A DNA stretch of 64,000 nt from positions 333,469 through 397,468 of the forward strand of contig CAZSKK010000001.1 in NCBI GenBank assembly GCA_964607415.1. The letters run 5' to 3'. Under the pieces are notes generated by a model, which was not told the DNA's origin, made no database searches, and was given only the letters and a program-made list of their open reading frames with translations. The translations under genes and the position numbers were made by a program. This document shows positions 1,345 through 57,518 of the stretch, one piece after another. This DNA comes from an uncultured Candidatus Saccharibacteria bacterium. Lineage in GTDB: Bacteria; Patescibacteriota; Dojkabacteria; J137. How positions within the stretch are numbered: position 1 is the first letter of the stretch; each line of letters opens with the position of its first letter.

Positions 1345-2736
1345 TTAGAATTTCTTCTCAAACTTCTTCCTACTCTTTTTTACTCTTTTGTTTTTAGTTT
1401 CAGAAACATTGTTTATTTTACTTTCTATATTTTTACCTACTTTATTTTCAAATTTAAGTCCCAATTTTTCTTGAACTTCTGTGAATTTTAACAAAGCGGC
1501 ATCAAACTTAAACTGAGTTGCTAGTAAACCTAAAATTATCAAAAACACTCCAATTAAAAGTTTATTATCACCGCCTTCAGAAAACAAAGCTGTAGCTGGT
1601 AGTGTACAACCGTTATTTGTGCAGTTTGCGTTATTCAAACACTGCGTCAAAACACATATATTTCTGGATGTGTCACATACATTTCCAACAGGACATGCAC
1701 CATTACTACCGCAAGCACTTCCACAAACGGGATCTACTGCACAGTCTGAATCATTCGGAATGCTAGGATTTCTACAAACTCCGCTGATACATTGCAAACC
1801 ACTTGCACAATTTCCCTGCCCTGTTCCAGTACAAGCTTCATTACAAACTGGGATTCCAGGATCTGGAGTACAATCTGCATCATTTGGTACTGCAGGGTTT
1901 CTACAAACATTATTTATACATTGAAGACCACTTGCACAGTTTCCTTGGCCTGTTCCTGTACATGCTTGATTACATTGAGCAGTAACAACAGGATTGCAAA
2001 CTGGCAATCCACAAGTAATTTGCTCGCCAGAAACTGCATCAACTTTAACTCCACAAAAGCTTCCTGGATTAGACACGCTAATATTACTTCCTTGCATTAT
2101 ATCAATCTGACCACACCTTCCATCTAATGTTGCACTACAACTTCCGTTTTCTGCAAATATTTGAACACCCACATCATCTCCTTGACATCTGTTATCGGTT
2201 CCACAGCCATTTGGGCACAGAAAAATCAAACAACCTCCAGCAGCTCCAGTACCGTTTGGACATTGAAGAGAACCCCCTGTACCAGAACATGCTGAACAAT
2301 CTCCTCCACAGTCTAATCCAGTTTCTCCACAATCTTGAGAACCATTAGAGCAGTGTGCGGTACCAGTACATGAAGACGCTGCATTACCCCCGCAAGCTAC
2401 AATAGCATCGGCGACAACGTTGGGATTGGATGAGTCACCATTATAACATCTATATTGGCCTTCATTTACTGTTCCTGAAGGACAAGGATTACATCCTAAT
2501 GGACCACCAGGTCCATCACATGCGTTAGGCCCACATGCAGTATTGCAACTTGCACCTAGACTTAATGTCGTGCCTGGATAAGGACATTGAATTTGAGCGC
2601 TTGTATCATCTGGCGCTTGATCTTGCTGATTAAGCCTTATAGCAATATAGACAGAAATTCCTGCAAGAACCAATGTCAAAATAATCAGAACAACAATTGT
2701 AATTTTTCTAGATCTTGGCATAAGATAAGAATACAT
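1345..2736 (-). CDS. Membrane-anchored Cys/Gly-rich tandem-repeat surface protein with a C-terminal LPATA + hydrophobic + Lys-rich tail (sortase-substrate-like)
   Basis: 463 aa. The N-terminal TM/signal anchor is ITIVVLIILTLVLAGISVYIAI. About 15% of residues are Cys. There are two ~40-aa repeats, C-N-x-ACTGTGQGNCASGLQCI-x-x-VCRNP-x-x-PND-x-DC. The C-terminus reads CTLPATALFSEGGDNK-LLIGVFLIILGLLATQFKF followed by a K-rich tail. Confidence 0.6.
   Translation of the reverse strand: MYSYLMPRSRKITIVVLIILTLVLAGISVYIAIRLNQQDQAPDDTSAQIQCPYPGTTLSLGASCNTACGPNACDGPGGPLGCNPCPSGTVNEGQYRCYNGDSSNPNVVADAIVACGGNAASSCTGTAHCSNGSQDCGETGLDCGGDCSACSGTGGSLQCPNGTGAAGGCLIFLCPNGCGTDNRCQGDDVGVQIFAENGSCSATLDGRCGQIDIMQGSNISVSNPGSFCGVKVDAVSGEQITCGLPVCNPVVTAQCNQACTGTGQGNCASGLQCINNVCRNPAVPNDADCTPDPGIPVCNEACTGTGQGNCASGLQCISGVCRNPSIPNDSDCAVDPVCGSACGSNGACPVGNVCDTSRNICVLTQCLNNANCTNNGCTLPATALFSEGGDNKLLIGVFLIILGLLATQFKFDAALLKFTEVQEKLGLKFENKVGKNIESKINNVSETKNKRVKKSRKKFEKKF
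1758..2000. repeat. Tandem ~120-bp coding repeat, two copies about 85% identical, inside the Cys-rich protein gene
   Basis: The DNA shows a direct repeat: ccacttgcaca(a/g)tttcc(c/t)tg(c/g)cctgttcc(a/t)gtaca(a/t)gct... These encode the duplicated CN(Q/E)ACTGTGQGNCASGLQCI module. Confidence 0.6.
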
Positions 2737-2924
2737 AATTCAGAGAAAGAGGTAAAGAGCTATGAAACAAATTTACCTAATTATTCTAAATACAAATAAA
2801 CTCGAAATTCAAAACCCTAAACAAATTTGAAACCAGAGGATAGAGGCTAGATGCCAGAATTCGAAGCTCACAGCTCGAAACTCGCAAACACGTTAACTCC
2901 TTGTTTTTCGCTATATGCTATAAG

Positions 2925-4478
2925 CTATACGCTTTCTCCATCAAGGTATTCCTTGGCTAGTCTTAACAAATCAATCTTCTTATTATAAAGTGGTTCGTCT
3001 ATAACCTTTTCCAAAAGATAATTTAAAACTTTACCTAGAACTGGCCCTTGCTGCAATTCGAAGTTTTCCATTAAATCAGCACCTGTTATGTCTAAATCAG
3101 AAACTTTTAACGCCATGTCTTTTGCTCTTACCGACGCAATCCTTTCAGATAAAATATCGATATCTTTGGGGTCAAATTCGCTTTTGGGGTTTGAAGCTGC
3201 ATCTGCTATTCTTAGTTTCATCAAATCCTCAATTGCATCTTCGCCGCCGACATTTATTATCAATCTTCTTATAGCACCATCAGACCAACCGAACTGAGCC
3301 TTTGGCTCAGGATGACGAATGACGGATGACGAATTACGAGTAGTCTCACCCTGCTCGCTTTGCTCGCCACCCTCTCCATTAAGGAGAACTGAGGGTGAGG
3401 TGGTGGTACTCACGCCTTTGCGCCAGTCTGCAGATGGATAATAAAACATATGCCACCTTACAAGTCTTACTACTCTATCTATTTCAGCGTTAGAAAATTT
3501 AAGCCTTTTCATTATTTCTTTTGTCATTTCAGACCCCATAACATCATGGCCATAAAAGTGAATGCCCTTTTCATCGTCACTTTTGCATCTTGGCTTTGCA
3601 ATGTCGTGAAAAAGGGCTGCTAATTTTACTGAATCTTCAGCTTCATCTACAGCTTTAATTGAATGTGTAAAAACATCATCTGTATGGAATTGCGGCTGAA
3701 CTACTTCAACACCTTCCAAAAGTTCTGGAACAAACAGCTCAAGAATTCCTGAATCTTTTAATAAGTTTAATCCTTTGGAAGGCTTTGGAGATTTTAAAAG
3801 AAGTTTCATCAATTCATCTCTAAACCTTTCAACAGAAACCTGTTTTGTTATATGCAAGGTTTGTTTGATTGCTTCAAAAGTTTTGGTTTCGATTTCAAAA
3901 TCAAGTTGAGATGCAAGTCTACAAGCTCGAACTGATCTTAATCCATCTTCTGAAAATCTTTCGATTGGATCTCTTACTGCTTTAATTACTTTATTCTTTA
4001 AATCAAAAATTCCATTATAAGGATCAATCAGAATTTGTTGTACTGAGACATCTGAATCATCAAAATGTTGCAAGTCCAATGCTATAGAATTGATTGTAAA
4101 ATCTCTTCTTGCGAGATCTTCGTTAATAGTTTTTGTAAATTCTACTTTTGTGGGCCATCTTCCCCCCATGTAATCAGCTTCAGATCTAAACGTTGTAACT
4201 TGTACGTCAAATTTTTCGCCATTTTCATCTTCACCGATAACTGTTATAGTTCCAAACTTTGCTCCAGTTGGAATTGATTTAGGGAAAATCTTAGAAATTT
4301 CATCAGGGTTTGCATCTGTTGCGATATCATAATCTCCTGGTAGCTTTCCAAGCAATATATCTCTAATACTTCCGCCCACCAAATAAGCCTTAAAATTATA
4401 TCTTTGCAGTTCTTCGGCAATGTTTATTACATAGCTTGGAATCAGTTTTTGAAATTGTGGAATAGTTAAGTCGATCAT
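2925..4478 (-). CDS. cca: tRNA nucleotidyltransferase (CCA-adding enzyme / poly(A) polymerase family) with a C-terminal HD domain; contains an in-frame low-complexity insertion
   Basis: Pol-beta head motifs GGSIRDILLGKLPGDYDIAT and RRDFTINSIA are present, as is an HD domain (LAALFHDIAKP, YGHDVMGSE). The segment WRKGVSTTTSPSVLLNGEGGEQSEQGETTRNSSSVIRHPEPKAQ is encoded by a GC-rich repeat. Confidence 0.75.
   Translation of the reverse strand: MIDLTIPQFQKLIPSYVINIAEELQRYNFKAYLVGGSIRDILLGKLPGDYDIATDANPDEISKIFPKSIPTGAKFGTITVIGEDENGEKFDVQVTTFRSEADYMGGRWPTKVEFTKTINEDLARRDFTINSIALDLQHFDDSDVSVQQILIDPYNGIFDLKNKVIKAVRDPIERFSEDGLRSVRACRLASQLDFEIETKTFEAIKQTLHITKQVSVERFRDELMKLLLKSPKPSKGLNLLKDSGILELFVPELLEGVEVVQPQFHTDDVFTHSIKAVDEAEDSVKLAALFHDIAKPRCKSDDEKGIHFYGHDVMGSEMTKEIMKRLKFSNAEIDRVVRLVRWHMFYYPSADWRKGVSTTTSPSVLLNGEGGEQSEQGETTRNSSSVIRHPEPKAQFGWSDGAIRRLIINVGGEDAIEDLMKLRIADAASNPKSEFDPKDIDILSERIASVRAKDMALKVSDLDITGADLMENFELQQGPVLGKVLNYLLEKVIDEPLYNKKIDLLRLAKEYLDGESV
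3301..3420. repeat. GC-rich mosaic repeat element inserted in-frame in cca
   Basis: ggctcaggatgacgaatgacggatgacg...gtctcaccctgctcgctttgctcgccaccctctccattaaggagaactgagggtgaggtgg. It contains the inverted pair CTCACCCT/AGGGTGAG and modules (ccaccctctcc, gagcaaagcgag, gctcaggatgac) shared with elements at 5447, 7509, 16409, 22607 and 51588. Confidence 0.55.
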
Positions 4479-4480
4479 AT

Positions 4481-4563
4481 TAGCTACAAGCCTTCAGCTA
4501 TCTGCTGTCAGCCCAAAATAGTTATTGCCCATCTGCTGATGGCTGATAGCCGACAGCTGTGGT
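4481..4563. repeat. Palindromic intergenic repeat (family R2), copy a, between the def stop and the cca start
   Basis: tagctacaagccttcagctatctgctgtcagcc...atctgctgatggctgatagccgacagctgtgg. It shares an identical 12-mer (ttcagctatctg) and an identical 16-mer (gctgatggctgatagc) with 45418..45476. Confidence 0.5.
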
Positions 4564-5091
4564 TTAGTCCATTTTATCCAGTTCTTGGGAAGTATACAAC
4601 TCTGAAGGATCTTTAATGTATGAAGTAAACAAAATTCCATCAAGATGATCTATTTCGTGTTGAAGAAGATGCGAAAAATAACCATCAGCTTTTATTACTT
4701 TTTTATCTCCTTTTGAATTCTGATATTCGACTGTAACTCTTCTAGGCCTTTCAACTTGTCCAAAAAGATTTCCACTATTTATGCTTAAACATCCTTCCCA
4801 ATAAATTGACTTTGCGTCACTTTTTTTCACAATTACAGGATTAATCATTACCTCCCATACATCTGTTCCATCAAAGTCCGGCTTATTTTCAAGATCTAAT
4901 CTTTTAACGATAGTTAATCTTTTTAAAACACCAACTTGATTTGCAGCTAAACCTGCAGAAAAATCCTCGCCTTTTTTAAGAGTATCTAACATTTCTGAAA
5001 TTAATTGCTTGAGTTCAGGATCAGAAAAATCTGTAATTTTTTCTGCTTTTTGTGTAAGGGATGGAAACCCAATTTGTTTTATTTGTAGCAT
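4564..5091 (-). CDS. def: Peptide deformylase
   Basis: 175 aa with the motifs GLAANQVG, EGCLSI and HEIDHLDG (GxGxAAxQ / EGCLS / HExxH). Confidence 0.85.
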   Translation of the reverse strand: MLQIKQIGFPSLTQKAEKITDFSDPELKQLISEMLDTLKKGEDFSAGLAANQVGVLKRLTIVKRLDLENKPDFDGTDVWEVMINPVIVKKSDAKSIYWEGCLSINSGNLFGQVERPRRVTVEYQNSKGDKKVIKADGYFSHLLQHEIDHLDGILFTSYIKDPSELYTSQELDKMD

Positions 5092-5352
5092 AACGCGATT
5101 ATATCATAGAATAGTTATAGTGTTTACGTGTTAACGAGTTAGAGAGCTAACTGATTAGATTATTAAAACTCAAAACAAGAATCTCCTAACTTTGATATAA
5201 TTCAGAATGACATCAGGGGTCAGAGACCTGAAGTTAGTGGCAAGATATCATAAGTAAGAATTTAAAGTTAATTCGTTTTGGTATGCGATTTCTGGATTCT
5301 AAATGTTTAGAATTTCCAATTTAGTATTTCGAATTTATCATTAATTTTTTCT

Positions 5353-6681
5353 ATGTTCATTTGTAGCAACTGTCAAAAAGAATTTTCTAAATGGAGTGGT
5401 CAATGTCCAAACTGTGGACAGTGGAATACACTAAATGAAGTTGATCCTTCGACTACGCTCAGGATGACAAAAACAAAATCGTCCAAAGCTTCCCGAAGCT
5501 CACGGCTCGAAGCTCGTAGCTCTCAGCAGCCAGTTAGACTTATTGATTTAGATAAAAAAGACGAAAAAGTAAGCTACAAACAAATAGAGCTCAAGACTGG
5601 TATCAAGGAATTTGATAATACAATTGGTGGAAGAATAATTTCTGGTCAAGTAATCTTGTTTGCTGGAAGCCCTGGCGTTGGTAAAAGCACTTTATCGTTA
5701 CAGATTACAGAAAGTTTTTCAAATCAAGGTTTAAAGATTCTATACATTGCAGGCGAAGAATCTCCAAGCCAAATAAAACACAGATCTGATCGATTAAAAC
5801 AAAAGCAAACTAATGTACTGTTTTACCCTGAGACAAACATAATCTCCATTCAAAACTATATTGCATCTCATTCAAAAGATATTGATTTAATTGTTGTGGA
5901 TTCAATTCAAACACTTTATTCACCGGATTTACCAAGTACTAGTGGATCCATTTCTCAAATTAGCGAATGCGCCGACAAGATTATAAGCTTAGCAAAAGGT
6001 TTTAGTATTCCTGCATTTATTATTGGTCATATTACAAAATCTGGTGAAATTGCTGGACCAAAAATTTTAGAACACATGGTTGACACAGTTTTATATTTTG
6101 AAGGTGATAAGCGTAGTGAATTAAGAATTCTTAAAGTAGAAAAAAATAGATACGGACCAACTGACGAAGCTGGGATTTTTAAAATGGCTGAAGGAGGCTT
6201 ATCAGAAGTTAAAGATACAAAAGAGCTTTTTGATCCAAGTAAAGAAGATGCTCCTGGATCTGTCTACTGTATGAGTTTAGAAGGTAACAGGCCAATAGTT
6301 GTGGAAGTTCAAGCACTTGCCACAAAAACATATTTTACAAACCCAAGAAGAACTTCTTCAGGTTTTGATTTAAATAGACTTTACATTCTCCTTGCAATTT
6401 TAGATAAAAAACTAAAACTAAAAACTTACGAATATGATGTTTATGTAAATATTACAGGAGGGATCAAAATTGTTGATCCTGGATTGGATTTAGCAGTCAT
6501 TAAAGCAATAGTTTCTTCAATTAAAAACGTAGTTGTCCCAAAAACTGAAGTATATTTTGGTGAAGTAGGTTTAACAGGTGAAGTTAGAAAAGTGATGTTT
6601 GAAGAAAAGCGAACAAAAGAATCTGAGAGAATGGGTTTTAAAAAGATAACTAATTCGAAAAATTTGAAAAGAATTAGTTAG
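5353..6681 (+). CDS. radA: DNA repair protein RadA/Sms
   Basis: N-terminal zinc finger CSNCQ...CPNCGQW, a RecA-like ATPase (GSPGVGKSTLSLQ) and a Lon-like C-terminal domain. An in-frame low-complexity insert (DPSTTLRMTKTKSSKASRSSRLEARSSQQP) is encoded by a GC-rich repeat. Confidence 0.85.
   Translation: MFICSNCQKEFSKWSGQCPNCGQWNTLNEVDPSTTLRMTKTKSSKASRSSRLEARSSQQPVRLIDLDKKDEKVSYKQIELKTGIKEFDNTIGGRIISGQVILFAGSPGVGKSTLSLQITESFSNQGLKILYIAGEESPSQIKHRSDRLKQKQTNVLFYPETNIISIQNYIASHSKDIDLIVVDSIQTLYSPDLPSTSGSISQISECADKIISLAKGFSIPAFIIGHITKSGEIAGPKILEHMVDTVLYFEGDKRSELRILKVEKNRYGPTDEAGIFKMAEGGLSEVKDTKELFDPSKEDAPGSVYCMSLEGNRPIVVEVQALATKTYFTNPRRTSSGFDLNRLYILLAILDKKLKLKTYEYDVYVNITGGIKIVDPGLDLAVIKAIVSSIKNVVVPKTEVYFGEVGLTGEVRKVMFEEKRTKESERMGFKKITNSKNLKRIS
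5447..5535. repeat. GC-rich mosaic repeat element inserted in-frame in radA
   Basis: cgactacgctcaggatgacaaaaac...cccgaagctcacggctcgaagctcgtagctctcagcagcc. Its modules are shared with 2857..2894 (cgaagctcacagctcgaaactcg), 36399..36445 (agctcgaaactcgtagct) and 3301..3420 (gctcaggatgac). Confidence 0.5.
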
Positions 6682-6797
6682 AAGCAGGAATCCTGGAGAC
6701 AAATGATACTTTCTTACACTTTTACTTCTGGATAACTATCTTCAAATTTGGATCGTGCTTCGAGTTTAGAATTTTAAATCAAAACACAACTATTTAA

Positions 6798-7454
6798 TCA
6801 CATTCTCTCTTTGTAGTGCTTCATTTCACCATCTGTAATAATCAGATATTCAAAAAATCCTAGCGAAGAATGTCCTAAATCTATAAATTGTTTTTCAGGT
6901 GTGAATTGATTTAAATGTGAATGACCACAAACTAAAATTTCATTTGGCTTTAAATTTGCTTGTGCCCAAGTTACCATTTCATCATTCATTTTCTGATACA
7001 GCTTTAAATATCTTTCTTTAAAAATCAAAATCAAAAAATTAATAGGATAGCTTGCAAGCCTGCTTAAAAACTTGTATTTATCAACAATCTTATGAATGAA
7101 ATTGAATTTTCCTACCTGCTGATGACCATGAGTAATATATAAAACTTTTCCATCTTTCAGTTCTATTTTATGTACATAAGTTTGAATATTAGAGAAGAGC
7201 GCAACTCTTTCATCTGTAAATTCCTCCTCGTCATGGTTACCAAAAATATAAATGGTATTTTTAGATTTTAATAAAGGGAAAAGTCTACTCCATTTTGAGT
7301 TAATAAAGTCATCAAATGAAATAAAGTCGTCATCCCAAAGATCTCCGTTTATAATAACTTTATCTACTGAGTTAATTAAATCCGCTAGTTTTTGAAATCG
7401 AGATTCGTTAAAACGTTTTTTTAAGTGTGTGTCTGAAATTATTAGTGTTTTCAT
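6798..7454 (-). CDS. Calcineurin-like metallophosphoesterase
   Basis: ISDTHL, INGDLWDD, GNHD and CGHSHL metallophosphatase motifs. Confidence 0.65.
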   Translation of the reverse strand: MKTLIISDTHLKKRFNESRFQKLADLINSVDKVIINGDLWDDDFISFDDFINSKWSRLFPLLKSKNTIYIFGNHDEEEFTDERVALFSNIQTYVHKIELKDGKVLYITHGHQQVGKFNFIHKIVDKYKFLSRLASYPINFLILIFKERYLKLYQKMNDEMVTWAQANLKPNEILVCGHSHLNQFTPEKQFIDLGHSSLGFFEYLIITDGEMKHYKERM

Positions 7455-7624: not shown

Positions 7625-9997
7625 CTATTCCCACTGCCAATTTTTTATTTCCGGCATGTCATCACCGTTTTCAATAATATAATTTCTATGATCCCTAAGT
7701 TTATTTTGCATCATGTAAATGATGTCGTTTTTAATTTCGGCAATCTTTGTATTTTGTTTACTAGCAGCTTCTACAGCCTCGATTACTACATGAAACCTTG
7801 ATGTACCGTTCAAAACTTGCATATCAAATGGCGTTGTTGTTGTACCTTCTTCAATATAGCCTATAACTTTCATTCTGTTTGCGATAGGGTGTCCCCAAGT
7901 TAAAAGTTTTATGGCTTCAGGATAGCCATGGAAATTAAATACAATAGGTTTGTCATTCGTAAAGAAAAAGCCCATATCAGTTTCAGAAATTGAAGTGTAC
8001 TTTTTGTCACCAAGCCCTATTCTGGATAATTCATTGACATTAACATATCTAACCTTTAGTTCCGGAACATATTTTTTTATCAATGTTATTGCGGCCAGTG
8101 TTTCTGTAGTTTGATAATCTCCACTCGAAGCCAAAACTACATCGGGATTGTCCACGTCTGTAGATGCCCAATCCCACACAGAAATTCCTCGTTTAACATG
8201 CTCTTTAGCTTCATCAATATTAAGCCACTGTGGCATTTCTCGTTTATCTGAAATTATTAAATTGACGGAGTTTTTAGATTTCAAACTCTCCTCCATTACA
8301 TACAAAAGCGTATTTGTATCCGAAGGAAAGTAAATGTTAACTGAATCCGAATACTTTGATAAAAGGGTATTTATTAACGCTGGGTTCTGATGTGTGAACC
8401 CATTATGTTCCTGTCTCCAAATGGTGCTTGTTGCAATATAATTCATTGACGGTAAGGGTTTTCGCCATGAAAACTTACTGGACTGCTTTATATATTTAAT
8501 ATATTGCTCTATTTGACTTGTTATTATGCTTAAAAATGCCTCATACGAAACCAAAACTCCATGTCTACCAGTCAAACTGTAACCTTGCATCCAGGATTGT
8601 AAGGTATGTTCACTAAGAATCTCCAAAATTAAACCTTTCTCGTTGATATGAGTATCAATTGATCTAACAGGCCAAATATATTTTCTAGATGTTACTTTAA
8701 ACAAAGCTTCTAGTTTATTTGATTCTGATTCGTCTGGCGAGAAAATTCTAAAATTTTTGCTTTCTTTATTTAAACTTATCAGATCTGAAAAATATTCACT
8801 TATTTCGGCCATCTCTGAAGATTTGTTTTTACCTCTTTGAGTCTCATCAAATTGTATTCCATGTTTTTTTAAATCTGGAAGAATCAAAGCTTTGCTAATT
8901 TCACCACCAAAAGCATGTTTATTCTTGCCCATTTTTCGCTCATCCTTTACAACTAGATGAAGTACTTCGTTTTTAGGAACTTTAGTGACAGGTTCCAAAA
9001 GTTCATCTATTCTATAACTTCTTAGCCATCTTTCTAAGGCCTTTAATTGTTGTGCATCGTTTTTAGGGTCTTTAATTGGAATTCCATGAGAATAATTAAA
9101 ATCTTCCAGCCTAAGCAAGCTTACTTCTTCAGGACACGTCCAACCTTTTTTGGTTTTTAGAATAATCACAGGCCACTTTGGTTTGTCAATTCCATAACTT
9201 GACCATTTAGATTTGATATCCTGAATTGAATGGAAAGATTTTATTAAAGCTTGTAAAAAATCAATGTAAATATCTATGGATGTATATTGATCTACCCATA
9301 AAGGTTCATAGCCTAAACCTTTAAAATAGTTTTCAAGTTCTTCATGAGACATTGTTCCCATTAAAGTAGGGCCCGAAATTCTGTAACTATTAAGATGAAG
9401 GATTGGCAAAACTGCTCCATCTGTTTGAGGATTTAAAAATTTGTTAAATTGCCAACTTGCTGCTAACGGGCCGGTTTCTGCTTCGCCATCACCTACCACA
9501 CAAGTAACAATCAAATCAGGATTATCTAAAGCAGCTCCAAATGCCAAACCTAAAGAGTAACCCAGTTCACCACCTTCGTGAATTGTGCCTGGAAGTCCTG
9601 GATAAGTATGACTTGGAAATCCATTTGGCCAGCTAAATTCTTTTATCAAATTTTCCATTCCTTCTTTAGAAAGTGTAAATCTAGGATAATATTCACCTAG
9701 AGTTTCTTCTAAAAGCAAGCTTGCAAGTACTGCAGGAGCCCCATGACCTGGTCCAATTATCGGCAAAATGTTAGCATTGTATCTGCTTATAAGATAATTT
9801 AGCCCGCCGTAAACAAAATTTAATCCTGGAACTGTACCCCAATGTCCAAGAATTCTATCTTTTATGTGTTCGGGCTTCAGTTCATCTTCTAGAAAATAAT
9901 TATCTTTTAGATACAACATCGCAGAGCTTAAATAGTTTGTAAGCCTGTGATATTGTTTAAACCATTTAATTGTGTATTGAATATCAGAATCCAGCAT
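7625..9997 (-). CDS. xfp: Xylulose-5-phosphate / fructose-6-phosphate phosphoketolase
   Basis: 790 aa with the phosphoketolase signature GHWGTVPGLNFVYG...GPGHGAPA and a TPP-enzyme fold of the right length. Confidence 0.8.
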   Translation of the reverse strand: MLDSDIQYTIKWFKQYHRLTNYLSSAMLYLKDNYFLEDELKPEHIKDRILGHWGTVPGLNFVYGGLNYLISRYNANILPIIGPGHGAPAVLASLLLEETLGEYYPRFTLSKEGMENLIKEFSWPNGFPSHTYPGLPGTIHEGGELGYSLGLAFGAALDNPDLIVTCVVGDGEAETGPLAASWQFNKFLNPQTDGAVLPILHLNSYRISGPTLMGTMSHEELENYFKGLGYEPLWVDQYTSIDIYIDFLQALIKSFHSIQDIKSKWSSYGIDKPKWPVIILKTKKGWTCPEEVSLLRLEDFNYSHGIPIKDPKNDAQQLKALERWLRSYRIDELLEPVTKVPKNEVLHLVVKDERKMGKNKHAFGGEISKALILPDLKKHGIQFDETQRGKNKSSEMAEISEYFSDLISLNKESKNFRIFSPDESESNKLEALFKVTSRKYIWPVRSIDTHINEKGLILEILSEHTLQSWMQGYSLTGRHGVLVSYEAFLSIITSQIEQYIKYIKQSSKFSWRKPLPSMNYIATSTIWRQEHNGFTHQNPALINTLLSKYSDSVNIYFPSDTNTLLYVMEESLKSKNSVNLIISDKREMPQWLNIDEAKEHVKRGISVWDWASTDVDNPDVVLASSGDYQTTETLAAITLIKKYVPELKVRYVNVNELSRIGLGDKKYTSISETDMGFFFTNDKPIVFNFHGYPEAIKLLTWGHPIANRMKVIGYIEEGTTTTPFDMQVLNGTSRFHVVIEAVEAASKQNTKIAEIKNDIIYMMQNKLRDHRNYIIENGDDMPEIKNWQWE

Positions 9998-11123: not shown

Positions 11124-12266
11124 TTAAACTGCATTTGCAACTGCTTTAGCTACCCTTTTGTCGAATGGATCTGGAATAATTAGATCTTCTGTAGGGTTTT
11201 CAACTAGTGAAGCAATTGCTTTGGCAGCATTTAACTTTGTATCAGTAGTTACTTTTTTTAGGTTTTTATCCAGTAATCCTCTGAAAATTCCAGGAAAGCC
11301 TAGCACGTTATTTACCTGATTTGGATAATCGGACCTCCCTGTAGCAACAATTCTTGCACCTGCCTGCATAGCATCTTCCGGTAAAATTTCAGGATCCGGA
11401 TTTGCCATTGCAAAGATCACGGAATCTTTATTCATCTTTCTTACCATATCTTTGGTTAAGGCTCCTGCAACACTTAAACCTATAAAGATTTGAGCCTCTT
11501 TTATAGCATCTTCTAAAGTACCCGTAAGATTTTGTTTATTAGTAAAATTTAAAAGTAATTTTTTATATTTATTTAAATCGTTTCTATTCTTAGAAATAAT
11601 TCCAGTAGAATCACAAACTATCATGTTTGAAAATCCATAATCTCTTAGCAAGCTTGCTACAGCAGTTGCAGCAGCACCTGCGCCATTTATTACAACTCTG
11701 GAATTTTTCAAATCCTTACCTAGCACCTTAGCCGAATTAATAATTCCAGCTAAAACTACAATTGCAGTCCCATGCTGATCATCGTGAAAAACAGGAATAT
11801 CAAGAATTTCTTGTAATCTTTCTTCAATTTCAAAACACCTTGGTGCCGATATGTCTTCTAGATTTATTCCAGAAATAGACGGTGCTATATTGGTAATTGT
11901 GTTTATAATTTCTTCAGTATCTTGCGTTGCCAGCACAATAGGAATTGCATCAACACCACCAAATTCTTTTAATAAAAGGCATTTACCTTCCATAACAGGA
12001 AGCGCTGCTTCTGGACCAATATTTCCTAATCCTAGAACTGCTGATCCATCAGAAATTACTGCTACAAGATTTTTTCTCCAGGTTAGTTCTTTAACCCTTG
12101 ACTTATCAGCCTTAATTTCTAAACATGGTCCTGCAACTCCGGGACTATACGCCAATGATAATTCAATTTTATTGGTTACTTTAATTTTAGGTACAATCTG
12201 TAATTTTCCCCCATTATCCTTGTGCATTTTAATTGATTCGCTTTTATAATCCATATTTAGATGCAA
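11124..12266 (-). CDS. NAD(P)-dependent malic enzyme (small type)
   Basis: LAYSPGVAGPCLEI, SDGSAVLGLGNIGPEAALPVMEGKCLLLKEFGGVDA and the dinucleotide-binding motif VINGAGAAATAV. Confidence 0.8.
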   Translation of the reverse strand: MHLNMDYKSESIKMHKDNGGKLQIVPKIKVTNKIELSLAYSPGVAGPCLEIKADKSRVKELTWRKNLVAVISDGSAVLGLGNIGPEAALPVMEGKCLLLKEFGGVDAIPIVLATQDTEEIINTITNIAPSISGINLEDISAPRCFEIEERLQEILDIPVFHDDQHGTAIVVLAGIINSAKVLGKDLKNSRVVINGAGAAATAVASLLRDYGFSNMIVCDSTGIISKNRNDLNKYKKLLLNFTNKQNLTGTLEDAIKEAQIFIGLSVAGALTKDMVRKMNKDSVIFAMANPDPEILPEDAMQAGARIVATGRSDYPNQVNNVLGFPGIFRGLLDKNLKKVTTDTKLNAAKAIASLVENPTEDLIIPDPFDKRVAKAVANAV

Positions 12267-12672
12267 ACTTAAAAAGTAGTCTTATTTATTGAATAAGATT
12301 ATATGAAATATAGCATGGAATCAATAGTTGCCATTTTTTGTATTGAGGACAGAACACTAGAATTCAGTAAGAATATCACTAGCTTAATAAAGAAGTACAA
12401 TAAAGATCTTTTAAATTTAAAAATTAATGGCCTGCTAATTACTGTGAAGCCCCGAAACGCTAACTAAAAAAGAGATTAAATACAAAATAAAGCTTTGCAT
12501 GAAGGAAAGTAAAGAAACGTTTATTTGCAAGTATTCTACTAATCCGGAAGATTATCGACTACCAAAACTAAGCTACCCAGCTGCTAAAGATTTTTTTGCA
12601 TCAATTAGCTTGAAAGTTGATACATGAAGTTGTAATTAATTTTGAACCTGTTCTCTGTGTTATTTGGTATTT

Positions 12673-13701
12673 TCATACCCTAAGCTTTATCTCATTCAGA
12701 AACCTTTGCAACACCTCACTCACTTTCTCATCTGTATTTCCTCCCCCCGCATTTCTGTGCCCTCCTACCTTTACACCTATTGCTTTATAAATTTCCATAA
12801 TTTCTATTTTGCTCCCATTTTTAGTTCTCCAGCCAACTTTTGTTCCTCCATTTTTTTCATGCCATAAATCTATTGCGTAAGGAAAACCTTCAATTGTTCG
12901 CATAAATACTTGTTGATAATATTTATGTAAACCTCTTTCTTGCCAACCATTTCCAAACTGCTCAGCAAGAAACTTATCATCTTCTTCATCGATAACCAGA
13001 ACAGTTAATCCAAATTCAGGATAATATTTTGTTTTATTTATAGCCCAAACAGTAAAATCCATTGTTTCCTTGGATACTGTATATTCAACCGCTTTATCAT
13101 GGTCAACTCCTGCTGAATAAAGATCCGCTGCAAAAGTATAAGTTCCGGGATTTTTAATTGCATACATAAACCTTCCCGTATCGCCCATCAATGCCCAGTA
13201 AAGCCAAGTTGCAACATCACTATCCAATGCTGCTCCTGATGACTTAATGAACCATTCATAAAGAACTTTTGCTGTGCAACTATCATCTACTCTTAATGAA
13301 AAGTCCAAAAGATCTTTGGAAACATCACCTTCAGTATGGTGATCAATGTTTACAAACTTTTCTTTTGAAATATTTTGTACAAAGTCTTGCCAATTATCAC
13401 CTAGAAATTGTTTCCAATCTGATCCATCAAGTAATACTATACAATCAAAATCGTTAAAATCAACTTTATCAGGATACAAAAACTCTACCTTTTCAACATC
13501 TGGGAATTTATCTGCAAGTTCATTTCTCCAGTTAAAAGTTACAACTCTTGTATTCAATTTGCCAAGTTTATTAAGCCACCATTGTGTTGCTAAGGCTGTA
13601 CCCAAACAATCAAAATCTACAGGTCTTGACGCAACTATCAAAAAAGAATTTGACTCTTTTATTTTTTTTTGAATACTATCAGCTGCTTTGGTTGGATTCA
13701 T
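12673..13701 (-). CDS. DHH/DHHA1-family phosphoesterase (NrnA-like)
   Basis: NIDHHTEGD (DHH motif) and GGHRNAGGG (DHHA1 motif). Confidence 0.55.
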   Translation of the reverse strand: MNPTKAADSIQKKIKESNSFLIVASRPVDFDCLGTALATQWWLNKLGKLNTRVVTFNWRNELADKFPDVEKVEFLYPDKVDFNDFDCIVLLDGSDWKQFLGDNWQDFVQNISKEKFVNIDHHTEGDVSKDLLDFSLRVDDSCTAKVLYEWFIKSSGAALDSDVATWLYWALMGDTGRFMYAIKNPGTYTFAADLYSAGVDHDKAVEYTVSKETMDFTVWAINKTKYYPEFGLTVLVIDEEDDKFLAEQFGNGWQERGLHKYYQQVFMRTIEGFPYAIDLWHEKNGGTKVGWRTKNGSKIEIMEIYKAIGVKVGGHRNAGGGNTDEKVSEVLQRFLNEIKLRV

Positions 13702-53298: not shown

Positions 53299-53370
53299 CT
53301 GGTCAGCTAGGATTCGAACCTAGAGTCTTCCCGTTAACAGCGGGATGCAATACCATTATGCTACTGACCA
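53299..53370 (-). tRNA. tRNA-Asn (anticodon GUU)
   Basis: Reverse complement: TGGTCAG-TA-GCAT-AATGGTAT-TGC-AT-CCCG-CUGUUAA-CGGGA-AGACT-CTAGG-TTCGAAT-CCTAG-CTGACCA-G. The acceptor is a perfect 7 bp. The anticodon loop is C-U-GUU-A-A. The T-loop is GGTTCGAATCC, the discriminator is G, and CCA is not encoded. Confidence 0.85.
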
Positions 53371-56744: not shown

Positions 56745-57518
56745 TTATTTCACCTTCTTAACCTCTCCACTTCCTGAAATATTCTGGCTGAAATTATCAG
56801 GATCACCTTTGTAGGAGATTTTCCCACTACCTGAAATATTTATATCTAACTTCTTTTCGGCTGAAATTTCTGCTTCAGCTGAACCACTTACATCTATTTC
56901 CGTTTCTTTTGTCTCTAAGTCTAATGCTAAATATTTTCCGGATCCACTTATATTTATGTCTTGTTTATCTGCAACTCCAAAAAGTGTAAGTTCACCGCTA
57001 CCACTAATATCGACATTAAGCTCTTTTATTTTTACCTCCAACTCGACGACTCCGGACCCGTTAATATCAACTTTTAGCTTATCTGTATTTAAAACGTAGT
57101 TATTTGCACCCTTAAAACTAGCCGAGCCATTAACTTTTAGCTCTTCTAAATCTGTGGTTGTTATTTTTATTCTGATTTTGTCCGATGGTTTATAGTTCTT
57201 TGAAAAAATCATTGCTATGTCATTTTTGAAATCGATAACAAGTCTTCTTCCTGAAACATTAGCTTCTATTCCTTTGATAATATTATCATCTGATTCAATT
57301 TCAATTTTTTCTTTCGAACCTTCTTCAATAACAACTTCCGCTGGTATATTAACAGTAACCTTTCTAAAAATCTTAAGATTTCTTGATTCAGACTCTATAA
57401 TTCCTGAACCTTTAACAGTATTAGCTTTAGAATAAATATAAAGTCCAAAAACTACTGCAGAAAGAAGAAAACAAAAAATACTTAAAAGTACTATTAAAAC
57501 AATGCTGACTTTTTTCAT
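56745..57518 (-). CDS. Exported repeat protein (DUF2807 / putative adhesin head-like beta-helix repeats)
   Basis: N-terminal TM. Repeated units are I-x-(I/V)SGSG-x-(L/V), including DINISGSGKYLAL, DISGSGELTLFG, IDVSGSAEAEISA, INGSGVVELEV and DINISGSGKISYKG. Confidence 0.45.
   Translation of the reverse strand: MKKVSIVLIVLLSIFCFLLSAVVFGLYIYSKANTVKGSGIIESESRNLKIFRKVTVNIPAEVVIEEGSKEKIEIESDDNIIKGIEANVSGRRLVIDFKNDIAMIFSKNYKPSDKIRIKITTTDLEELKVNGSASFKGANNYVLNTDKLKVDINGSGVVELEVKIKELNVDISGSGELTLFGVADKQDINISGSGKYLALDLETKETEIDVSGSAEAEISAEKKLDINISGSGKISYKGDPDNFSQNISGSGEVKKVK

Follow-up and report, generated by a model that had tools for sequence, protein, structure and literature searches.

A cysteine-rich surface protein of a Candidate Phyla Radiation bacterium that is probably sorted through an LPxTA signal

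The 64,000-nucleotide stretch of contig CAZSKK010000001.1 analysed here (the window) has a G+C content of 33% and contains one long open reading frame (ORF) at positions 1345 to 2736 of the minus strand, encoding a cysteine-rich protein of 463 amino acids. Searches of the whole protein against Pfam and NCBIfam gave zero matches. On balance, it is probably a disulfide-rich surface protein that a Candidate Phyla Radiation (CPR) bacterium exports through Sec and sorts with a sortase by means of an LPxTA signal near the C-terminus, and it is likely to bind a host cell or a substrate at the cell surface. Both the sortase-substrate type and the A-variant of the motif are already known. What appears to be undescribed is a large CPR family in which conserved sorting regions at both termini are combined with a conserved cytoplasmic end motif; no curated Pfam or NCBIfam r20 model describes its C-terminal sorting domain. 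Attachment to other microbes is the presumed way of life of CPR bacteria (Patescibacteria), yet descriptions of their surface proteins are scarce, and no described substrates were found for the abundant CPR sortases. With more than 500 unannotated clusters, the family is a plausible major class of such substrates. Taken alone, the gene is fairly ordinary: its product is a surface protein that has no annotation and a sortase-like anchor.

The original prediction had described an LPATA motif, a hydrophobic segment and a lysine-rich tail at the C-terminus, and all three were present in that order. The pentapeptide LPATA (amino acids 379 to 383) is encoded at window positions 1588 to 1602 of the minus strand, the strand of every feature of the protein described below. 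It is followed by an acidic spacer, LFSEGGDNK (amino acids 384 to 392; 1561 to 1587), for which the family consensus is [LI][FI][DS]DxxD, and then, nine residues after LPATA, by a transmembrane segment, LLIGVFLIILGLLAT (amino acids 393 to 407; 1516 to 1560), the hydrophobic stretch measuring 15 to 19 residues depending on whether it is ended at residue 407 or 411. An alignment of 100 homologous sequences provided the column conservation percentages given throughout. Position 379 is L in 59 and I in 22 of these sequences (81% L/I), position 380 is P in 99, position 381 is variable, position 382 is T in 95, and position 383 is A in 63, G in 22, S in nine and D in four. Within the transmembrane segment G396 and G403 are each conserved at 80%, and the residue that follows it, 408, is K or R in 91% of homologues and Q in the window protein. 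Because conservation can be followed column by column in 100 homologues, the C-terminal LPATA pattern is more than a product of chance.

An exhaustive profile search returned 522 representative clusters at E ≤ 1e-3, including 176 at ≤ 1e-10 and 53 at ≤ 1e-30; a word-indexed search returned 11 relatives. Among the best 154 of the 522 relatives, 144 have a membrane segment among their final 130 amino acids and at least 133 carry [LIVA]Px[TSA][AGSDN] just upstream of it. The fourth position of these 133 pentapeptides is T in 121, and the fifth is A in 76, G in 36 and S in 11, so that in the family the LPxTG, LPxTA and LPxTS forms replace one another at a single homologous position. Description of the motif as non-canonical was therefore half right: most family members carry LPxTA, which is also an established motif of class D sortases in Bacillus (PMC3208642). 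The G-variant relatives are matched at the homologous position by the NCBIfam r20 model TIGR01167 (LPXTG_anchor), which has a cut-off of 15.9 bits. Among relatives, a 381-amino acid protein with an LPNTG signal at locus L010 scored 22.3 bits and others scored 13.5 to 15.8 bits; eight of 68 family tails matched the model at E ≤ 1 (best 6.7e-5). The family-conserved [LI]-P-x-T-[A/G/S] directly before a C-terminal membrane segment, together with the TIGR01167 matches of the G-variants, supports the surface-protein and sortase-substrate architecture that had been proposed.

The same signal was also found on unrelated passengers, among them DUF11 and DUF4215 proteins, an 1,100-amino acid protein at locus L007 and a protein of 381 or 394 amino acids at loci L010 and L021. 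Occurrence on tandem paralogues and on unrelated passengers alike is the behaviour of a sorting domain that can be transferred between proteins. If it acts as its homology suggests, LPATA, the acidic spacer, the transmembrane helix and the basic tail would retain the protein in the membrane, and a sortase would cut between T382 and A383 (example peptide CTNNGCTLPATALFSEGG) and transfer the protein to peptidoglycan or lipid II. A further unrelated passenger with this signal, at locus L015 (11419 to 12045), is a very acidic, low-complexity protein of 208 amino acids ending in LPRTD, a helix and a tail, the gene for which overlaps the stop codon of family member P0056 by 4 bp.

The family shares with classical LPXTG proteins (TIGR01167) the layout of export signal, passenger, [LI]PxT[G/A], acidic residues, hydrophobic helix and basic C-terminus. 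It differs in that position five of the motif is mostly Ala, the N-terminal signal region is also conserved, the organism is a CPR bacterium, and the tail is 41 to 56 amino acids long, as opposed to roughly 5 to 10 in the canonical signal, and ends in RxxFExKΦ. Ala after Thr is likewise found in class D substrates of Bacillus, such as BasH and BasI of B. anthracis and the LPXTA carbohydrases of B. cellulosilyticus (PMC3208642, PMC3617157), and LPNTA is cleaved by SrtC, a class D sortase of B. anthracis (PMC3208642). In the class D LPxTATN signal (NF058670; sortase NF058671, SrtD) the motif is followed by T-N, whereas the family has L-F-[DS]-D at this point and the window protein reads LPATALF. 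The NF058670 model did not match the window tail and matched only four of the 68 family tails weakly (best E 0.025). Neither the passengers nor the taxonomic lineage is related to those of the Bacillus substrates.

The cytoplasmic tail of the window protein comprises 56 amino acids (408 to 463; 1348 to 1515), is predicted to be helical and contains 14 Lys and two Arg. The charged tail had been called unusually long, which agrees with its length here and with a family median of 41 amino acids (range 0 to 73). It terminates in RKKFEKKF (amino acids 456 to 463; 1348 to 1371), an instance of the family motif R-x-x-[FY]-[EQ]-x-[KR]-[FILV], in which R is conserved at 50%, F459 at 73% and E460 at 82%. 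This motif was present within the last 30 residues of 105 of the 154 relatives (68%), compared with 4% of composition-matched shuffled tails. A few relatives without a tail (P0020, P0052) end in a plain LPQTG or LPETG and a helix. Their existence marks the tail as a dispensable addition to the basic signal, which the pentapeptide is not. Speculatively, the long tail with its RxxFExKΦ end would most likely be a lineage-specific element for retention, positioning or recognition before cleavage.

At the other end of the protein, an N-terminal anchor had been predicted and was recovered as a hydrophobic segment, KITIVVLIILTLVLAGISVYIAIRL (amino acids 11 to 35; 2632 to 2706), preceded by the basic residues RSRK. 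A basic stretch followed by a hydrophobic segment of 22 to 25 residues is the arrangement of an export signal. The translated ORF opens MYSYLMPRSRK. As the first residue of 83 of the 100 homologues is aligned with Met6 (2719 to 2721), as is that of the closest orthologue, P0002 (69% identical), this codon is probably the real translation start, and the first five codons of the ORF (in the region 2719 to 2736) are probably untranslated. The family consensus of the N-terminal region is [RK][KR]-I-T-I-x-x-L-x-x-L-T-L-x-L-A-G-V-S-…-Q-A-P-x-D-[ST]-S-A, with L17, T21 and L24 each conserved in more than 70% of sequences. The motif following the anchor, QAPDDTSA (amino acids 40 to 47; 2596 to 2619), has P42 at 88%, D44 at 66%, S, T or A at position 45 in 72% and A47 at 66%. 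With a small residue at both −1 and −3, in keeping with the (−3,−1) rule, and with Pro at −6, it looks like a signal-peptidase I site. The basic and hydrophobic N-terminus would route the chain through Sec, with cleavage probably occurring after the conserved P-x-D-[ST]-S-A. A full-length AlphaFold model of low confidence (predicted local distance difference test, pLDDT, 50.8) placed helices at both hydrophobic segments and in the C-terminal tail.

A number of results weigh against sorting by a sortase. The window protein falls below detection by TIGR01167, with no match even at E ≤ 10 when searched whole or as the tail alone, and no other ORF in the 64-kb window carries the sorting signal. 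At the source, the search for a sortase covered the window and approximately 15 kb of flanking sequence, on a contig of 584,792 bp. None was found in the window by a six-frame scan for TLxTC-type motifs and Pfam analysis of all ten membrane or hypothetical ORFs, nor among the Pfam-annotated neighbours in the 8.6 kb to the left and approximately 6 kb to the right. Likewise, no sortase lay within 10 kb of the family genes at about ten related loci. In all, eight loci were scanned for TLxTC-type motifs, Pfam neighbour lists were inspected for nine contexts, and L021 was covered by an ORF and motif scan. Finally, canonical sortase substrates show neither a conserved tail of 41 to 56 amino acids nor such strong conservation of the N-terminal helix, features that could mean retention in the membrane.

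The main alternative, which is rather unlikely, is a protein that stays permanently in the membrane and is never cut by a sortase. The C-terminal helix would be its anchor, perhaps together with an uncleaved N-terminal helix, giving a two-pass protein with a large cysteine-rich extracellular loop. The RxxFExKΦ tail would then be a functional end, for example for cytoplasmic docking, and P-x-T-[AG] a structural juxtamembrane element. The length of the tail and the prevalence of its end motif accord with this arrangement, as do the lack of a sortase at any examined locus, the missing TIGR01167 match, the conserved small residues in both helices (AGxS in the first; G396 and G403 in the second) and the residue-by-residue conservation of the N-terminal helix, which a signal peptide that is discarded would not usually show. 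A structural element would not, however, be expected to match the sortase pentapeptide this closely (P 99%, T 95%, A/G/S 94%), with acidic residues after it and about nine residues to the helix. Scores of G-variants above the curated LPXTG cut-off, and tail-less relatives that have kept LPQTG or LPETG and the helix, also speak against this alternative.

Housekeeping sortases are usually unlinked to the genes of their substrates, which makes the local absence of a sortase uninformative rather than negative. Sortases are moreover abundant in CPR bacteria and need substrates: in one dataset the family PF04203 was present in 1,020 CPR genomes and 12 non-CPR genomes, that is, in more than half of the CPR genomes, and it is near-ubiquitous in Microgenomates (PMC6744442). 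A complete Microgenomates genome has also been reported to possess a sortase gene (PMC7143001).

A more ambitious version of the sortase reading, which must be regarded as doubtful, is a CPR-specific system of two-ended sorting, in which the N-terminal helix and QAPxDxSA are paired with the LPxT[A/G] signal and RxxFExKΦ tail, the tail serving as a docking site for a dedicated cytoplasmic or membrane factor or as a signalling peptide after cleavage. Were this so, the docking factor would control where or when surface proteins are displayed, for instance at the site of contact between episymbiont and host. Pairing of a conserved N-terminal signal motif with a C-terminal sortase signal occurs in the YSIRK-G/S and LPXTG proteins of staphylococci and streptococci. 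The present family has no sequence similarity to these and conserves the hydrophobic helix itself along with QAPxDxSA after the helix. The conserved end motif and N-terminal region provide handles for building hidden Markov models of the CPR surface proteome, for finding the partner enzyme by co-occurrence and for testing whether sorting in CPR bacteria departs from the Gram-positive paradigm.

Cysteine accounts for 44 of the 463 residues (9.5%), a 17-fold enrichment relative to the window's 48 remaining ORFs (0.55%); the figure of about 70 given originally was an overcount. All 44 are located between amino acids 51 and 377, and the protein also contains 59 Gly and a single His. Their even number, their exported location and their fixed spacings favour disulfide formation over metal binding, and their composition, location and partial modelling suggest about 22 disulfides in the ectodomain. 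Genes of the DsbD_2 family adjoin family genes in two loci, which is a further reason to favour disulfides, as is the reported enrichment of MdbA-like oxidoreductases and VKOR in CPR bacteria (PMC6744442). Locus L018 encodes a CcdA-like DsbD_2 membrane protein adjoining a membrane-anchored thioredoxin (WCPTC) at 266 to 1472, and locus L015 a DsbD_2-like protein alone at 12184 to 12843, in each case 1 to 3 kb from family members. Their position hints that the family is connected with thiol-disulfide chemistry outside the cytoplasm.

It had also been suggested that the protein binds metal. As a metallothionein-like protein, or as a redox buffer, its cysteines would act as free thiol ligands, and the high Cys and Gly content agrees with this. 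Nothing else was found in its support. Besides the even count and the export of every Cys, the module-wise spacings are fixed across homologues, no CxC or CC clusters are present, only one His is available, and thiol-disulfide genes lie near relatives; a metal-binding or redox-buffering role is consequently regarded as very improbable.

From the N-terminus, the ectodomain begins with a cysteine-rich segment that opens the mature chain (amino acids 48 to 124; 2365 to 2595). Compared with orthologue P0002, amino acids 48 to about 115 are hypervariable, with an indel of approximately 40 amino acids, whereas amino acids from about 125 to 256, representing the core and stalk, are about 97% identical and the signal region is near-identical. 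The divergent block is the part of the mature chain farthest in sequence from the anchor, and this hypervariable outer segment makes the family a candidate for host attachment. Next is a mini-module, HCSNGSQDCGETGLDCGGDCSAC (amino acids 128 to 150; 2287 to 2355), which is 73% identical to a module of P0007, an unrelated 691-amino acid FG-GAP/VCBS protein of a different kind of organism, in which it occurs in four N-terminal copies. From this resemblance, HCSNGSQDCGETGLDCGGDCSAC seems to be a Cys module, not annotated in Pfam, that is shared between proteins or mobile.

The conserved core domain (amino acids 159 to 247; 1996 to 2262) has the pattern CxxFxCPNG…C…CGQ[IV]D…C, with ten invariant columns in 14 relatives. 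No matching family was found for it in Pfam or the PDB, and it was modelled by AlphaFold at low confidence (pLDDT 35 to 50). At amino acids 172 to 182 (2191 to 2223) the window protein reads CPNGCGTDNRC where relatives have CPNGDTNGDGxC. The latter resembles the DxNxDG calcium loop of dockerins and EF-hands; this candidate was set aside, the PDB profile match (E approximately 1.5) being not significant and the loop being confined to relatives and absent from the window protein. Judging from this substitution, the window protein may carry an additional disulfide where a calcium site would otherwise be.

Three small Cys modules follow the core. Modules 1 (amino acids 247 to 289; 1870 to 1998; six Cys, C255 to C289) and 2 (amino acids 290 to 332; 1741 to 1869) are 43-amino acid copies of each other. 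In the alignment the third, membrane-proximal module has eight Cys (amino acids 333 to 378; 1603 to 1740; CGxxCxxxxxCPxxxxCxxxxxCVLxxCxNNxNCTNNGCT) and is the most conserved element of the ectodomain, C348, C354 and C361 being invariant in 100 sequences. The modules were modelled as small beta-hairpin units at a pLDDT of 73. The predicted disulfides would rigidify a stalk of three modules near the membrane, a core domain of approximately 90 amino acids and the hypervariable start of the mature chain. In the model the modules gave weak fold matches to knottins, epidermal growth factor (EGF) arrays and IGFBP-4, a likeness that consists in their being small, disulfide-rich beta-hairpin units. The density of its cysteines had been likened to that of EGF and granulin domains, but the protein matches no knottin, EGF or IGFBP-N model in Pfam, and beyond these weak fold matches no profile or fold match upholds the comparison. 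A single-sequence phmmer match in the PDB to the second EGF domain of factor VII (E 0.012) vanished when the family profile was used, and this lead was therefore rejected. The DUF4215/Myxococcus cysteine-rich repeat (PF13948) occurs in some relatives, DUF4215 repeats being found in P0003, P0024 and P0109, whereas the window protein has no PF13948 match.

The claim that the protein contains tandem Cys modules holds in that two copies are present; they are not the near-identical units of 40 amino acids and 120 bp first described. Modules 1 and 2 each span 129 bp and are identical at 29 of 43 amino acids (67%) and 87 of 129 nucleotides, rising to 77% over a core of 116 nucleotides. Variation in the copy number of this repeat, as at a contingency locus, had been proposed. 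It would come about by slippage or recombination and make the surface protein differ between cells or strains, and the presence of one to five modules among distant homologues would agree with it. At 67% identity, and with a longest shared run of 12 nucleotides, the copies offer little basis for such events, and the repeat was not called by Tandem Repeats Finder. Moreover, the gene is 100% identical in nucleotide sequence in five Logan assemblies derived from different sequencing runs, and P0002 also has two copies. Contingency variation is, on this evidence, scarcely credible.

Searches of GTDB species genomes identified three loci, with relatives in a Candidatus Dojkabacteria metagenome-assembled genome (MAG) and in a MAG labelled as uncultured Saccharibacteria. 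Of the metagenome scans, the first returned no loci and the second four, among them one new long context, L021, that is syntenic with known loci. Loci L007 (the Dojkabacteria MAG), L009 and L018 (metagenomic) are syntenic with the window, the family gene following the CCA-adding enzyme; in L009 the family genes are followed by polynucleotide phosphorylase (PNPase) and MurJ, as in the window. The slot after the CCA-adding enzyme holds one family gene in the window, two in L007 (9038 to 13697) and three in L009 (3454 to 7705), indicating that gene number varies at a fixed locus. Across relatives, locus L008 (151 to 2987) included, it holds one, two or three such genes, and in L009 it is closed by PNPase. 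The low G+C content, the small housekeeping genes and this synteny suggest that the source is a CPR (Patescibacteria) bacterium, probably one resembling Dojkabacteria (WS6). The expectation that other proteins would share the C-terminal pattern was thus borne out in relatives, often in tandem, and was not borne out in the window and its flanks. A profile search with an alignment of the tails alone gave no match at E ≤ 0.01, and neither this search nor that with the 100-sequence alignment, which scored at least eight matches, placed a paralogue on the 584,792-bp contig among the matches listed.

The tandem sets of two or three family genes that share a slot in relatives might also be read as major and minor pilins. 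The protein would then belong to a pilus assembled by a class C sortase, which joins the Thr of LPxTA in one subunit to a Lys of the next. A role as a pilin is considered highly unlikely, given that no class C sortase adjoins any examined locus, the protein has neither a YPKN-type pilin motif nor an E-box, and the window holds a single family gene. The ectodomain is, in addition, built of small Cys modules rather than CnaB or Ig-like domains, for which there was no Pfam match.

Other genes were observed around family members. At locus L015 type IV secretion-like genes (PrgI, TraC-like and a VirB4-like ATPase; 2905 to 6863) lie a few kb upstream of P0056. In the syntenic loci L016 (983 to 3531) and L017 (971 to 3607) a CAP-domain protein (cysteine-rich secretory protein family) and a multi-pass membrane protein of about 500 amino acids without a Pfam match come before the family member, and two small membrane proteins of about 95 to 100 amino acids come after it. 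This arrangement may represent a surface-protein gene cluster.

The whole ORF (1345 to 2736) encodes 463 amino acids and a stop codon at 1345 to 1347, and an identical protein is recorded in NCBI and Logan assemblies from several sequencing runs (runs carrying the gene include SRR29850203, SRR22443710 and SRR7051042), the largest contig with it being that of 584,792 bp. A promoter and terminator scan gave no signal above chance. The gene is flanked by a CCA-adding enzyme (2925 to 4478) and by PNPase (from 1046), with PAP2-like and MurJ genes beyond. MurJ is three genes from the Cys-rich protein gene, a sign of peptidoglycan synthesis in the lineage. Elsewhere in the window, a 257-amino acid protein (56745 to 57518, minus strand) has an N-terminal hydrophobic segment and a strong match (E 6.6e-47) to DUF2807, a putative adhesin head GIN domain. 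This protein resembles a further surface protein of the same organism and does not carry the LPxTA signal. A phosphoketolase (XFP; 7625 to 9997, minus strand) and a malic enzyme (11124 to 12266, minus strand) represent ordinary CPR-type metabolism, and a single tRNA is located at 53299 to 53370 (minus strand). Approximately 5 to 7 kb to the left of the window start (L001, 16394 to 18437) are genes for a LexA-like S24 peptidase, a 114-amino acid ORF and a Y-family polymerase-like protein (IMS, IMS_C, DUF4113), a set that looks like an SOS mutagenesis cassette.

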